A stretch of 64,000 nt of DNA, from positions 587,538 to 651,537 of the forward strand of contig CP066691.1 in NCBI GenBank assembly GCA_016432485.1, written 5' to 3'. The position numbers and the translations under genes are program-made. The notes under the pieces are model-generated. The model did no database searches and had not been told where the DNA came from. It saw only the letters and a list, made by a program, of their open reading frames with translations. Shown here in pieces: positions 1,391 to 35,724 of the stretch. How positions within the stretch are numbered: the first letter of the stretch is position 1; each line of letters begins with the position of its first letter. The DNA is from Candidatus Niyogibacteria bacterium. GTDB taxonomy: Bacteria > Patescibacteriota > Minisyncoccia > HO2-45-28.

Positions 1391-2245
1391 TCATTGCAAC
1401 CGAAAACCTTGCTGGGCCAACCGATTTTTTATTACCTCCATCATGATAACCCAGCCTAGCCTTTGGGCTTTTGTGAACGAACCTTGGGAGAGTCCCACCA
1501 GCTCGTAGTCGCCGTCCCGAATGGCGATGACCGGCGCCCCGCTGTCGCCGGGGTTGAGGCCATTTGAGACCATGAAGGCATTCCGGGCGACAGAGTTCAC
1601 CAGGGAGACGGCCTGTGGCGCCCTCAGCGAACTCACGATTCCCTCACGGACGTTGACCCCGAAATTCATGGGGTTTCCGATGAGATAGACGAAATTCCCC
1701 ACTTGGAGGTCGTCACTGTTCCCGATGCGATACGGGAAAGACTTCAGGCGGAGCTCCGCGGGAATGCGGAAAAGGGCCACGTCCACGTTCTTATCGGCCA
1801 CCAGCCGCTCGAGCGCATAACTCCGGCCCCCGTGCTCCAGGTAGGTCCGCTCGTCCACTTTCGTGGCCCGCAACGCCACCTCGCCTAATGGCGTGGTGAT
1901 GGCCGCGTTCTCGACGGAAACGACATGCTCCACCGTCAGCAGATACTTCCCGAATAGCGCAATGCCTGTTCCCCTCAGGCTCCGATTCAGGACTTTCCCT
2001 TCCTCCCCCCGGAACTTCACCTCTGTGCGGAGAGAATACAGGGACTCGATGATCCGGGTCAGGTTCATACGCCGCGGATTGACCAGGAAGGTATTGTAGT
2101 CATACTGCCCGTCGTGCATGAAGAGCAACGGCGGGGACGAGGTCGGTGTGGTTGTACTCCGGGCGCCTGTGCACCCCGAAATCACCAATAGAGACGCCAA
2201 AACAACCGAAAACCGTTTGTTCATGTTCTTTCTCCCCTTTTTCAA
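1391..2245 (-). CDS. trypsin-like (S1 family) serine protease, predicted lipoprotein
   Basis: N-terminal signal peptide with lipobox LLVISGC. GDSGAPV catalytic-Ser motif. Markedly higher GC than the bulk of the window. Confidence 0.7.
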   Translation of the reverse strand: MKKGRKNMNKRFSVVLASLLVISGCTGARSTTTPTSSPPLLFMHDGQYDYNTFLVNPRRMNLTRIIESLYSLRTEVKFRGEEGKVLNRSLRGTGIALFGKYLLTVEHVVSVENAAITTPLGEVALRATKVDERTYLEHGGRSYALERLVADKNVDVALFRIPAELRLKSFPYRIGNSDDLQVGNFVYLIGNPMNFGVNVREGIVSSLRAPQAVSLVNSVARNAFMVSNGLNPGDSGAPVIAIRDGDYELVGLSQGSFTKAQRLGWVIMMEVIKNRLAQQGFRLQ

Positions 2246-2464
2246 GGAACGGAGGACATCCGTTCGGATTGTGAGATTTGATTCTTTGCTCGCCCCTTAA
2301 CAACCTTTAGGTCTGCTTGGGGTAAACAAAAATCCGGCGCCAACTCAAATTCCCTAGCCCAGGAATAGAGTCGACGCCGGATTTTCCGGTTTGCCCTTTT
2401 CTTTTTAGCTTACGTTTCCATTATACTCCTCCCACAGAAAAAGTCAATAGCGTCTTATGTATAG

Positions 2465-2535
2465 TCGGGGTGCCGAGAATTGAACTCGGTCTACCTGCTC
2501 CCAAAGCAGGTGTACTGCCGGTATACTACACCCCG
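2465..2535 (-). tRNA. tRNA-Pro(TGG)
   Basis: Acceptor CGGGGTG/CACCCCG, anticodon loop TTTGGGA, T-arm GAGTTCAATTCTC. Confidence 0.8.
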
Positions 2536-2552
2536 ATGAATTTTACTGGATA

Positions 2553-3178
2553 TGTTTCACGTTTTACATTTATAAAAGAGGTTAAAGTCCTATGTCATTT
2601 GTAATCCTAATTTTAACCCTTTTAGCCCCAAAATCAAGAAAGACGGCCACGATATTAACTTGCCATTCAATATCATCGTCTATATTTTTTTCTATTAAAT
2701 ATGTCTGGATAGCTCGGGAAAGTCTTTTTAACTTCCAGGGGTGAACATTATCTTCAGGTTCATATTCTTCCCAATCCCGAACCGAGTTCGGAATGGTTTC
2801 ATGTGAAACAGTCTTAACTTCAAAAAAATGAATAATAGAACCTTTTTGGGCTACAATATCTATTTCTCCCCATTTTCTTAAATAATTTCTATCTAAAATC
2901 TTAAATCCGTGTTTCACAAGATGTTTCACACAATATTTTTCTCCAACATCTCCGATTTTTCTTTTTTCAGATGGCATTTTGTTTCACGTTTTACATTTTT
3001 ACTTAGTTTTCTCTAGCGCGATTTATTTATTATTTGCTCGCGCAAATACATTGTCAAGAAAAGGATGCTTTGTTTCACGTTTTACACTATTGGACATTAT
3101 AATAATATCAGACACATCAGTTTTAAATTATGTCCGTTATATATTTATGCAAATAAAAAATGTAAAACGTGAAACAAA
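2553..3178. repeat. four copies of a 17-nt motif TGTTTCACGTTTTACA (3 direct, 1 inverted) flanking yraN
   Basis: Copies at 2553-2570, 2979-3000, 3070-3087 and 3161-3178 (the last inverted). Copy 2 lies immediately upstream of the yraN ATG. Copies 3 and 4 form an inverted pair that encloses a second inverted repeat, ggacattat...attatgtcc. Confidence 0.8.
2582..2977 (-). CDS. yraN: YraN/UPF0102 family predicted endonuclease
   Basis: 131 aa; GEIDIVA...FFEVK core typical of the UPF0102 PD-(D/E)xK-like family. Confidence 0.6.
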   Translation of the reverse strand: MPSEKRKIGDVGEKYCVKHLVKHGFKILDRNYLRKWGEIDIVAQKGSIIHFFEVKTVSHETIPNSVRDWEEYEPEDNVHPWKLKRLSRAIQTYLIEKNIDDDIEWQVNIVAVFLDFGAKRVKIRITNDIGL

Positions 3179-3212
3179 TTTTGTTTTTAACAAGATATGT
3201 AAGTTACGAATG

Positions 3213-3283
3213 TGGACCTGAGGGAAATCGAATCCCTGTCTCCGCAATGCGAATGCGGTGTATTACCACTATACTACAGGCCC
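3213..3283 (-). tRNA. tRNA-Ala(CGC)
   Basis: Acceptor GGGCCTG with G3:U70, anticodon stem CCGCA/TGCGG with loop TTCGCAT, T-arm GGGATTCGATTTCCC. Confidence 0.8.
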
Positions 3284-3361
3284 AAAAATCTCGAAGAAAA
3301 ACGGATTTCTATGAGATGGACAAAATTAACTCTAACAAATTTTTGGATAAAATAAAATCGC

Positions 3362-4237
3362 CTAAACTAGGCGATTCCATTTTTTCTCTTTTTGCCGGTG
3401 TTTTACGGCTAGCGTCGGAAACCACGGATAAGCGATAAAAACCGAACCAAAACTGTGAGCAGAGGCGCCGATTTCTTCATTTTTTATTATATCTTCATAA
3501 TCCCAGACAGGCACGATGATCGGAGTATTACAGTAATTCATCAGTTTTTTCGCCATATCCTCATAAAACCATCTGACGATTTTTCCGGAAACCCCTCCGC
3601 CGCCGTATTTTTTAAAATAACCGGAGCCATCGGGAAAAATTAAATTCCAAGGCACCGTGTTGAAAGAAATCGCGGCAACATATCTTTCTGCCTCGCGAGC
3701 AATTCGGCAAAAATTTTGGGCATAAGAGAGTTTGAGTATAATAGGGTGGCGGCAATTTTCGTAAAGCCGGCGGCAAGAGTCAATGGTTGATTCGGCATTT
3801 TCAGTCATTTCTTCTTCGGTGTTGGGACAGCTGGCATTAAGCTCCACCGCGGTCAGGGGGAGGGAATTAAACTCGCGCGTTATAGATGATAATTCAACGC
3901 CATATGAAGCAATTGAGAAAACGACGTCTCGATTAAAATCAATTTTTGCTAAATATTTTGTTTTCCATCCTAAAAAGCCCGGGTTCGGCAGGCCAAGACA
4001 ATTTACAAAACCAACCAGCTCGCCATTTTCATAAATCGGCCTTACTTTAAACCATGGTATTCTGCCGTTTCCTTGGCGTTCGTCCGGCGTTATTGTTTTT
4101 AAAACGACGCAAAAAAGAGACGGATCAAAATATTTCTTCGGCAGGCATTTTTCCCAAGGCCATCCGAGGCCGTCAAAGCCTAGAGAGCCGGAAGAGGCAA
4201 AAAATTCAAATTTTTTATTCCCGAATTTTATAGCCAA
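3362..4237 (-). CDS. dihydroorotate dehydrogenase-like TIM-barrel flavoprotein (class 1 DHOD family)
   Basis: NASCPNT active-site Cys motif, FNTVP motif, GGGGVSG near the C-terminus. Confidence 0.55.
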   Translation of the reverse strand: MAIKFGNKKFEFFASSGSLGFDGLGWPWEKCLPKKYFDPSLFCVVLKTITPDERQGNGRIPWFKVRPIYENGELVGFVNCLGLPNPGFLGWKTKYLAKIDFNRDVVFSIASYGVELSSITREFNSLPLTAVELNASCPNTEEEMTENAESTIDSCRRLYENCRHPIILKLSYAQNFCRIAREAERYVAAISFNTVPWNLIFPDGSGYFKKYGGGGVSGKIVRWFYEDMAKKLMNYCNTPIIVPVWDYEDIIKNEEIGASAHSFGSVFIAYPWFPTLAVKHRQKEKKWNRLV

Positions 4238-4561: not shown

Positions 4562-6022
4562 TTATTTCACATAATACCTTTGTTTAATTTTACCGACCTC
4601 CTCTTCTTCCAGGCCGATTTTTTTATGTTTGGCTGACTCGCGTAATTTCCCTAATTCTTTCTCCGACACGGCGCAGAGTTTTTTGATTCGGCCTTCGAGG
4701 TAATCTTTGCTGTTTAATTTCGGGTCGTCAAGCACTTCTTCAAGCAAAACATCAAGTATCGCGCCTATTTTAGGACCGGGCTCAAATGCGCAAATCCGCA
4801 TAATGTCGTCGCCTTTGATTTTGAGCATTTTAACCGAGATCGGGTCGCGCTGGACCTTGTCAACCATAAACTGGAAGTGGCGCAGTTTGTAGGGCTCGGC
4901 TTTGGGCACGCCCGACCCCACGCGGTCGCAAATCCGGACTTTAATTAAATCATTCATATCTTCAGCGCCAACTCTCGCTACAAGCCGCCTGACCGAGGAC
5001 TCCGTAACCTCGCCGACATTGTAATAAAAAAGGTGATAGCGCACCAGTTTGGTTACTTTATCAATAAATTTTTTGGGAAAGCGCAGGCGCGACAAAATCG
5101 CGGCAGTCATTTTCGCGCCCACAATTTCATGATTATAAAAAGTTGAATCCTTGCCGTCGCCATGCTTGGTGCGCGGCTTGCCGACATCGTGAAGGAGCGC
5201 TGACATTCTGATATCAAGCGGCCATTTTTCTTTAACCGCTCGGTCAAGCGAGCGCAAATTATGCTCCCAAACGGTGTAAATGTGATGTTTATTTTGAGTA
5301 ACATTCCAGCCCTCTTCAAGTTCGGGCATAACGAATTTCAAAATGCCGAGTTCCCGCATAGCTTCCAAACCTCGCGAGGCATTATCCGATTCAATCGTTT
5401 TTATGAGTTCGTCGCGAATCCGTTCTTTGGATATGAATTCCAGAAGCCCGCGCTTTTCGCGAAGCGCTTCCAGCGTTTTATCTTCAATTGAAAAACCGAG
5501 TTCGGCTTCAAAACGCAGAGCCCGCATAATGCGCAAAGCGTCTTCTCCAAATCTTTCTTCCGGATTGCCGACCGCGCGAATAATTTTATTTTTCAAATCT
5601 TTCTCTCCGCCGAAATGGTCTATCAGTTCTTGGTCTTTAGTTTTTAGTTTCAATGCCAGCGCGTTTATAGTAAAATCCCTGCGCTTCAAATCGTCTTCAA
5701 GTTTGTCGGTGAACTTAACCGCGTCGGGATGGCGTTTGTCGGTGTACTTTTCTTCAATACGATACGGAGTTATTTCAACTACCGCAAGCGTTGGGTCGTC
5801 AGAGCCGGTCTTGACCCCGACTGTTCCGAAATCGTTTTCATAAAAACTATCGGCAGGGAAAATTTTTTGAATTTCTTCCGGCTTGGCGTTTGTGGTTATG
5901 TCCCAATCCTTTGGCGCTCGTCCCAACAGCAAATCTCTTACGCATCCGCCGACCAAATACGCCTCGTATCCGGCGCCCGTAAGCGCCTCGTAAACCTCTT
6001 TAATTTCTTTCGGGATTTTCAT
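4562..6022 (-). CDS. cca: CCA-adding tRNA nucleotidyltransferase with HD domain
   Basis: N-terminal GGCVRDLLLG pol-beta nucleotidyltransferase motif; HD motif LLHDVGKP. Confidence 0.85.
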   Translation of the reverse strand: MKIPKEIKEVYEALTGAGYEAYLVGGCVRDLLLGRAPKDWDITTNAKPEEIQKIFPADSFYENDFGTVGVKTGSDDPTLAVVEITPYRIEEKYTDKRHPDAVKFTDKLEDDLKRRDFTINALALKLKTKDQELIDHFGGEKDLKNKIIRAVGNPEERFGEDALRIMRALRFEAELGFSIEDKTLEALREKRGLLEFISKERIRDELIKTIESDNASRGLEAMRELGILKFVMPELEEGWNVTQNKHHIYTVWEHNLRSLDRAVKEKWPLDIRMSALLHDVGKPRTKHGDGKDSTFYNHEIVGAKMTAAILSRLRFPKKFIDKVTKLVRYHLFYYNVGEVTESSVRRLVARVGAEDMNDLIKVRICDRVGSGVPKAEPYKLRHFQFMVDKVQRDPISVKMLKIKGDDIMRICAFEPGPKIGAILDVLLEEVLDDPKLNSKDYLEGRIKKLCAVSEKELGKLRESAKHKKIGLEEEEVGKIKQRYYVK

Positions 6023-34978: not shown

Positions 34979-35051
34979 TGCCTGGGGAGGGAATCGAACC
35001 CCCGACGCCTGCCTCTTCAGGGCAGCGCTCTAACCACTGAGCTACCCAGGC
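34979..35051 (-). tRNA. tRNA-Phe(GAA)
   Basis: GCCTGGGTAGCTCAGTGGTTAGAGC..., anticodon loop CTGAAGA. Confidence 0.85.
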
Positions 35052-35724
35052 TTCTTGGTTTTTGCAGATATCTTAAACCAAAAAATTTGTCTTTTTCCAG
35101 AGCACTTTTGATTTTATAGTATTTTCTGTTTAAAAACAAGACATCTTTAGAACGATACATTACAAAGAAAAGTTTTTTAGAATCTCCCTTTGTGTATTCT
35201 AAATTCATGACCCCTTTTCCTTTGTGAAAAAAACCGCTTACACCATAAAACCTTACCAGACTGTCTTTAAGCCATTCTAAAAATGGTAAACTCGCAGAAG
35301 CAAAGGACAATCTAAATCCAAAACTATTTGGCCATCTTTTATCCCAAAATGTATAAAATGAACCGTCTCCATCAAACAATCCTCTGACAAAGTCGGCGAA
35401 GAATTTTTTGGGCACGTTAACTTTTTTAATAGATTTTGATTTTGTCTGTGTAAGACCGATTTCATTTAAAAATTTATAAAACACTATATCACCAAAAGTT
35501 ATCTGAAAATACCTTTTTTCGGAAACACCCCCGCGCCCACCTTTTCCTATTTTGTTTTTGATGTTGAGTGCTATTTTAAATTTTTCTACCAATTCTTTAT
35601 CTGCCGATTTTAAAAATATGTGTCTTTTATCACGAGACAAACACCCATCGGAGGTTATAACACCAATTGCATATGCAAAGTTTGACGACCATTCTATTTT
35701 TACTTTTTGCTGTGGCAGACCCAC
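35017..35724 (-). CDS. LAGLIDADG-family homing endonuclease (two-motif, monomeric type), free-standing
   Basis: Motifs AIGVITSDGCLS and VRGLFDGDGSF. The 3' end overlaps the 5' half of tRNA-Phe by about 35 nt. Confidence 0.75.
   Translation of the reverse strand: MGLPQQKVKIEWSSNFAYAIGVITSDGCLSRDKRHIFLKSADKELVEKFKIALNIKNKIGKGGRGGVSEKRYFQITFGDIVFYKFLNEIGLTQTKSKSIKKVNVPKKFFADFVRGLFDGDGSFYTFWDKRWPNSFGFRLSFASASLPFLEWLKDSLVRFYGVSGFFHKGKGVMNLEYTKGDSKKLFFVMYRSKDVLFLNRKYYKIKSALEKDKFFGLRYLQKPRSLGSSVVRALP

Follow-up and report, generated by a model that had tools for sequence, protein, structure and literature searches.

A cluster of parS-like sites in and around yraN in a Candidatus Niyogibacteria genome

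The yraN gene of a Candidatus Niyogibacteria genome (Patescibacteria/CPR) lies between two tRNA genes and is accompanied by four exact copies of a 16-nt sequence. We refer to the whole 64-kb stretch of DNA that was analyzed, which is part of a contig of ~837 kb, as "the window". All genes of the locus are encoded on the minus strand. Read in their direction, the order is tRNA-Ala(cgc), an inverted pair of 16-mers, a sigma70-like promoter, another copy of the motif, yraN, the remaining copy of the motif, and tRNA-Pro(tgg); coordinates are given in Table 1. YraN is reported to be an endonuclease of single-stranded DNA that, together with ComM, resolves the D-loop of natural transformation (bioRxiv 10.1101/2024.02.06.579203). 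A sequence-only reading of the window had described four copies of a 17-nt motif, three direct and one inverted, around a tRNA-flanked yraN, with one copy just upstream of the start codon. The analysis bears out the number, the orientations, the upstream and downstream tRNA genes, and the position of copy 2 directly ahead of the ATG; the length is 16 nt rather than 17 nt.

Table 1. Features of the yraN locus (positions within the window)
Feature	Position	Strand	Sequence or match	Remarks
tRNA-Pro(tgg)	2464–2535	−		Downstream flank
16-mer copy 1	2553–2568	+	TGTTTCACGTTTTACA	13 nt past the yraN stop codon, 17 nt ahead of tRNA-Pro(tgg)
yraN (UPF0102, PD-(D/E)xK nuclease)	2582–2977	−	PF02021, E = 4.8e-17	Houses the site cluster
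Near-canonical palindromic parS-like site	2795–2810		GGTTTCATGTGAAACA; 14/16 to consensus	In yraN; encodes V-S-H-E-T
Two exact half-parS heptamers	2911–2929	+	GTTTCAC	Starts 2911 and 2923; direct orientation, 12 nt start to start
16-mer copy 2	2980–2995	+	TGTTTCACGTTTTACA	Ends 2 nt (AA) ahead of the yraN ATG (2977)
Predicted sigma70-like yraN promoter	3029–3057	−	TTGACA, 17 nt, AATAAT; 11/12 match
16-mer copy 3	3071–3086	+	TGTTTCACGTTTTACA	Right arm of the inverted pair
Inner imperfect inverted repeat	3092–3135		GGACAT...ATGTCC	Between the arms of the inverted pair
16-mer copy 4	3161–3176	−	TGTTTCACGTTTTACA	Inverted; forms the left arm; 35 nt past tRNA-Ala(cgc)
tRNA-Ala(cgc)	3212–3283	−		Upstream flank

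The copy number of the 16-mer was equaled in none of 100 dinucleotide-preserving shuffles. At up to two mismatches, the 64-kb window yields no further copy, and the sole additional match carries three mismatches. The repeat grows to 22–23 nt once the flanks are counted, and the arms at 2978–3000 and 3156–3178 are 100% complementary over 23 nt. The inverted pair had been described as enclosing a second inverted repeat (ggacattat/attatgtcc). The nested repeat is present, but the 9-mers (3092–3100 and 3127–3135) match at 8/9 positions, and GGACAT/ATGTCC pairs over 6 bp. These GGACAT/ATGTCC words are kept at the related loci L004, L005, and L168 without compensatory change. At many loci, inverted repeats of such words ("ATGTCCgatagaa", "aaaGGACA...TGTCCttt") reappear close to parS sites upstream of yraN.

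Judged by its sequence, the motif is a member of the parS family. The published parS consensus, TGTTTCACGTGAAACA, is the site of the chromosome-partition protein ParB/Spo0J (PMC7383237; table in PMC7022226). The 16-mer matches this consensus at 13/16 positions, and each copy retains GTTTCAC as an exact parS half-site. In place of the other half stands a direct-repeat copy, GTTTTAC (GTAAAAC on the opposite strand), which is one change away from GTGAAAC. Read in the direction of yraN, the 16-mer is T-GTAAAAC-GTGAAAC-A, in which the second half-site is 6/7 identical to GTGAAAC. The three substitutions relative to parS flip this second half-site from inverted to direct orientation, and the dyad symmetry of parS is lost, with only 10/16 positions being symmetric. 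Chromosomal ParB binds parS as a symmetric dimer. In model organisms, changes at 3/16 positions of parS usually weaken binding, and a site with three mismatches would not usually be counted as strong. Because dyad symmetry fails, we file the 16-mer as a parS-derived half-site pair and not as a canonical parS.

As a half-parS, defined by the presence of GTTTCAC or GTTCCAC, every copy of the 16-mer qualifies. GTTTCAC is bound as a "half-parS" by ParB of P. aeruginosa and of several other species (PMC7022226 section 4). Five sites within three mismatches of parS occur in the window, all of them at 2553–3176, and 0/100 shuffles contained as many. Similarly, 7 of the 10 GTGAAAC/GTTTCAC heptamers in the 64 kb fall in 2554–3175. 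A literature search found no mention of the exact 16-mer variant string, nor of any connection between yraN and parS.

The sequence-only reading had overlooked three parS-related sites within yraN itself, at 2795–2810, 2911, and 2923. The codons of the site at 2795–2810 come right after the catalytic E-V-K of YraN, and a homologous in-CDS site, GTTTCnCGnGAAAC (encoding V-S-R-E-T), was found in many of 80 Patescibacteria loci. The heptamers at 2911 and 2923 fall in the yraN codons V-K-H-L-V-K-H. In other Patescibacteria, the equivalent of 2911–2929 is an inverted parS-like site, GTTTCTCGTGAAAC, generated where the residues K-F-L-V-K-H are written AAG TTT CTC GTG AAA CAy at yraN loci. At this site, the GTG codon is used in 18/18 cases versus a background of 24.5% (p = 1e-11), and the AAG codon in 30/34 cases versus a background of 33% (p = 4e-11). 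On this codon usage, the in-CDS parS-like sites are judged to be under nucleotide-level selection, held by synonymous-codon constraint. In the clade of the window, the first in-CDS site has lost the inverted arrangement, and its heptamers are direct (GTGAAAC, 5 nt, GTGAAAC).

The 16-mer is exactly conserved in relatives. The sequence-only reading had named a lack of conservation in relatives among the points that would speak against it, and for the motif conservation is perfect: the window and L004 are identical at 64/64 motif positions, versus 84.6% of other intergenic positions and 75.3% of coding sequence. L004/L056 (YraN 72% identical) have four exact 16-mers in the layout of the window, L005 (~69–71% identical) has three around yraN, L168 (69% identical) also has the exact 16-mer around yraN, and L057 (65% identical) has a single copy. 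At L138 (58%), an inverted pair of 16-mers 11 nt apart is followed by CGTTTCATGCGAAACA and a DnaA box. Three loci recovered by a metagenome scan have YraN at 30–32% identity: L203 has six exact 16-mers; L227 has, directly ahead of yraN, an inverted 16-mer pair that encloses another inner hairpin, as well as two canonical parS cores; and in L188, the exact 16-mer occurs alongside canonical parS, the tally being four canonical cores, one variant, and 20 heptamers. The slot after the stop codon that is taken by copy 1 is also filled in L004, L005, and L168, a gap of 2–3 nt between site and ATG is kept in L004, L005, L057, and L168, and the predicted yraN promoter is retained in L004. The spacing of the inverted pair differs among loci (11, 36, 74, and 109 nt), as does orientation; the sequence alone is constant.

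The neighborhoods of these genes hold further features that we record in their own right. In L004 (GCA_964574495.1; 3618–3805), the tRNA-Ala(cgc) gene orthologous to 3283–3212 of the window is split at the anticodon region by an insert of ~115 nt. The insert holds a complete second tRNA-Ala(cgc) (3673–3746) and is bounded by a perfect 13-nt inverted repeat, CCCCGTTAGACAT/ATGTCTAACGGGG; of the two tRNA-Ala sequences, only the inner one scores as a tRNA. In L057 (2180–2980) and L168 (reverse strand, 1500–830), a RayT/IS200-like (Y1 transposase-like) gene has been inserted directly ahead of yraN. This gene is ringed by REP-like palindromes, CCCAAACTTAGTTTGGG, with five copies in L057, where a parS-like sequence, TGTTTCATATGAAACA, abuts the ATG of both the RayT/IS200-like gene and yraN. 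The window has 20 tRNA genes in 64 kb, and those examined closely are 71–73 nt long and lack an encoded CCA. On its minus strand, at 35017–35724, an ORF with a LAGLIDADG domain extends over the 5′ portion of a tRNA gene (35051–34979); this region (34979–35724) lies in a low-GC kilobase (GC 0.357).

Across Patescibacteria, parS sites are linked to yraN. The canonical 14-bp parS core, GTTTCACGTGAAAC, has an exact match in the 200 nt ahead of yraN at 33/80 loci, rising to 49 with up to one mismatch and to 63 with up to two. The 80 loci, totaling 436 kb, contain 333 parS-like sites with two or fewer mismatches, and shuffled sequence contains none. Relative to the yraN start, these sites peak at −100 to 0, +40 to 80, +150 to 200, and, in the neighboring cca gene, −1500 to −600; downstream of yraN, they are almost absent from the 80 loci. 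At three loci with 10-kb flanks, parS-like sites are confined to the interval from ~1 kb upstream of yraN to +200. Relatives reach a 16/16 or 14/14 match to parS at the homologous locus, with the full palindrome TGTTTCACGTGAAACA upstream of yraN. The upstream cca genes of relatives (e.g., L058 2183) hold 95 sites within two mismatches over the 80 loci, encoding V-S-R-E-T. The window also has a cca gene near yraN (4562–6022), with no parS-like site. A literature search found nothing that links parS, ParB, or yraN in Patescibacteria (CPR), and nothing apparent on where the chromosomes of this group segregate from.

Sites of the parS type are normally origin-proximal (PMC7383237). At 56/80 loci (e.g., L058 2790–2815), the 400 nt ahead of yraN include an exact DnaA box (TTATCCACA/TGTGGATAA). 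The density of DnaA boxes there is 1.86 per kb versus 0.06–0.09 per kb elsewhere, a ~25-fold enrichment, and the order DnaA box, TAAARGACA, parS, yraN holds in all 25 loci that have all three elements. TAAARGACA occurs far above chance genome-wide in Patescibacteria loci and is nearly missing from the window. The region upstream of yraN may be oriC-adjacent or DnaA-regulated. Near yraN, the window lacks a clear skew switch and an exact DnaA box; it has only a box with one mismatch, at 3342. Searches for a DnaA gene were negative in the window and in the Patescibacteria loci examined.

Neither motif regexes nor Pfam (23 ORFs) nor phmmer (10 ParA/ParB queries) found a gene for ParA or ParB in the 64-kb window, and none was found in ~540 kb of Patescibacteria yraN loci, including the three with 10-kb flanks. 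In other bacteria, the exact 16-mer is found beside such genes. Of 120 metagenome contigs that contain the exact 16-mer, 24 (23 of them credible) encode ParA Walker A, ParB box II (sought as GERRxRA), or RsmG (RsmG/GidB) in the same locus, with most of these signals within 2 kb of the 16-mer. The linked contigs all come from unrelated GC-rich bacteria (GC 0.49–0.74). In four of them, L182 (960–1016), L202 (1383–1445), L204 (2077), and L240 (925–1199), one to three direct 16-mers directly precede a parA-parB operon (ParA ...NQKGGVGKTTTAVNLAGE), 47–62 nt away from the codons of the ParA Walker A. This position suggests that in the lineage concerned, the 16-mer is the operon's own parS or operator. 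In L146, rsmG is flanked by two inverted 16-mers and adjoins parA-parB. Controls for this context gave 0/48 viral matches and 0/90 yraN loci. Thus, this asymmetric variant is used in nature at the usual positions of parS sites.

We consider it likely, with a probability of about 0.65, that the four 16-mers are parS-family sites in an array on which ParB nucleates, i.e., a centromere. Such an array would span ~625 bp and comprise four tandem half-site pairs, the near-canonical dyad at 2795–2810, and the half-sites at 2911 and 2923; ParB would nucleate on it, and the partition complex would be built from there. In several species, ParB attaches to single GTTTCAC heptamers but does not spread from them (PMC7022226 section 4), so the tandem 16-mers may serve as anchoring or bridging sites around the dyad. 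ParB occupancy would probably affect yraN expression as well, because copy 2 lies downstream of the predicted promoter and, by a conserved 2–3 nt, ahead of the ATG; ParB bound in this interval would probably dampen or gate expression of the gene. The host would presumably have a ParB that binds asymmetric sites. Four points count against the ParB reading: a ParB or ParA gene was found neither in the window nor at the yraN loci; the 16-mer is not a dyad and mismatches parS at 3/16 positions; the fixed distance of 2–3 nt to the ATG resembles an element of gene expression more than a centromere; and yraN in the window has neither an exact DnaA box nor a clear skew switch nearby.

The sequence-only reading had proposed, as one option, an operator array for a dedicated regulator. 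An array of protein-binding sites is retained here, as one of the parS family, and the dedicated regulator is given up as not the best fit. ParB fits better because the sequence is of the parS family and because the identical 16-mer lies beside rsmG-parA-parB. A regulator other than ParB, such as a heptamer-binding HTH protein, a competence-type regulator, or YraN itself, would control yraN and, in relatives, cca, instead of serving chromosome partition. Its appeal lies in the placement of the sites, which are 2–3 nt from the ATG in the window, L004, L005, L057, and L168, in L057 also abut the ATG of the inserted RayT-like gene, and lie downstream of the predicted promoter. Linkage to yraN holds down to 30% protein identity, parAB genes were not found nearby, and heptamers that are direct, inverted, and variably spaced would suit a monomeric binder. 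Set against this are the exact 16-bp canonical parS sites of relatives, for which a second family with the same consensus would be a large coincidence, and the identical 16-mer variant adjoining rsmG-parA-parB in unrelated phyla. Furthermore, no DNA-binding regulator conserved beside yraN was found in the window, L004, L005, or L136–L138, and the copies after the stop codon and in the coding sequence occupy positions unlike those of operators. We regard such a regulator as unlikely; the probability given to the ParB reading takes into account that no parAB was found in the window or at the yraN loci, that the 16-mer is not a dyad, and that its fixed position at the ATG would fit a regulatory role.

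Two other explanations concern the inverted pair in particular. If the element acted as RNA, the inverted copy would pair with a downstream copy in a tRNA-Ala/yraN transcript and thereby create a site of RNA processing, a hairpin resembling a terminator, or a fold that hides the yraN start. The 131-nt stretch 3190–3060 folds at −34.2 kcal/mol (z = −5.85), the stretch at 3156–3178 is a perfect 23-nt complement of the start-adjacent copy (2978–3000), and the nested-hairpin layout is seen again in L004 and L227. However, the arms are invariant, and hence without compensatory changes that would support pairing; the loops range from 11 to 109 nt, with differing inner hairpin sequences; copies in L168 and L203 are in the same orientation only, or solitary without a partner; the predicted yraN promoter separates the arms from the start-proximal copy; and in other phyla, the 16-mer occurs singly upstream of parA. 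Rfam, applied to 2200–3500 by E-value and to the whole window at the gathering threshold, returned tRNAs only, and a terminator scan detected neither a terminator nor a terminator-like U-tract at the inverted pair. We consider a role as RNA improbable. The MITE-like insertion that the sequence-only reading offered as its other option, with 3071–3176 inserted between the tRNA genes and the remaining copies as remnants, is more improbable still. Terminal inverted repeats of 16–23 nt, the AT-rich intergenic stretch between tRNA genes in which they lie, and the lack of one of the four copies in L005 would agree with it. It is rejected for want of dispersed copies and of a target-site duplication around the arms: the 64 kb contain no other copies, the arms are invariant, the spacing of the pair varies, and solitary copies recur at set distances from the start and the stop of yraN. 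Moreover, the arrangement and arms are kept across lineages with 58–72% YraN identity, the arm is a parS variant that also adjoins parAB in other phyla, and 48 matches in viral contigs are single, at chance level, and without ParA/ParB context. A blastn comparison of 2400–3300 with phage records gave no match. Also rejected were a DNA-uptake sequence, an idea drawn from the role of YraN in transformation, as the motif is restricted to the locus and is not genome-wide, and a promoter element, as the 16-mer does not keep the −10/−35 distances from the ATG and a good promoter is present separately upstream.

If the ParB reading is correct, the main outcome is that an unexplained motif receives an ordinary explanation, with a known kind of element, parS, in what would be an undescribed setting. 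Two aspects would set it apart, namely a conserved head-to-tail architecture of half-sites and an ancient embedding of parS in and around yraN. A conserved parS cluster at yraN, as a rule with a DnaA box ahead of it, provides a concrete landmark for finding the centromere, and perhaps the origin, in uncultivated genomes, and the 16-mer with its head-to-tail half-sites offers a natural test case for ParB on non-palindromic sites. A bolder version, which we put forward as speculation and doubt more than we believe, is that the cca-yraN locus is the ancestral Patescibacteria centromere, possibly in or next to oriC, and that the 16-mer represents a distinct ParB binding mode coupling partition or replication to YraN expression. 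That mode would consist of anchoring, or of a roadblock without clamp loading, at a locus with a DnaA box, a promoter, and parS upstream of and in yraN.

Several known systems offer points of comparison. Like chromosomal parS (consensus tGTTNCACGTGAAACa), the array has multiple sites clustered in <1 kb, with 13/16 identity and one exact half-site in each 16-mer; the in-CDS copies encode V-S-R/H-E-T, relatives have the perfect consensus at the locus, and the same 16-mer variant lies beside rsmG-parA-parB elsewhere. Unlike chromosomal parS, the 16-mer is not a dyad, its second half-site being direct, and ParB binding is putative; the cluster is tied to yraN instead of parB or rsmG, with no parAB for at least 61 kb on one side. 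There is also a likeness to the half-parS heptamers GTTTCAC and GTTCCAC (PMC7022226, section 4), in that GTTTCAC is the invariant core of every copy. Here, these heptamers are found singly, in direct pairs, and in inverted pairs. The half-sites of P. aeruginosa differ in numbering in the hundreds and being dispersed genome-wide, whereas those described here are concentrated at one locus (7/10 in 64 kb) and form head-to-tail pairs. In plasmid P1, parS contains repeats of a heptamer, "box A" (ATTTCAC-like), in mixed orientation. The near-identical heptamers in both orientations at the yraN locus recall this arrangement, as a resemblance only; no equivalent of box B or of the IHF site was identified here, and the setting is chromosomal. 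Lastly, the site between the predicted promoter and the start codon is like the promoter-proximal sites of ParB-family repressors, as in the silencing by ParB close to parS (PMC7022226 section 10), with the difference that the putative regulated gene here is yraN.
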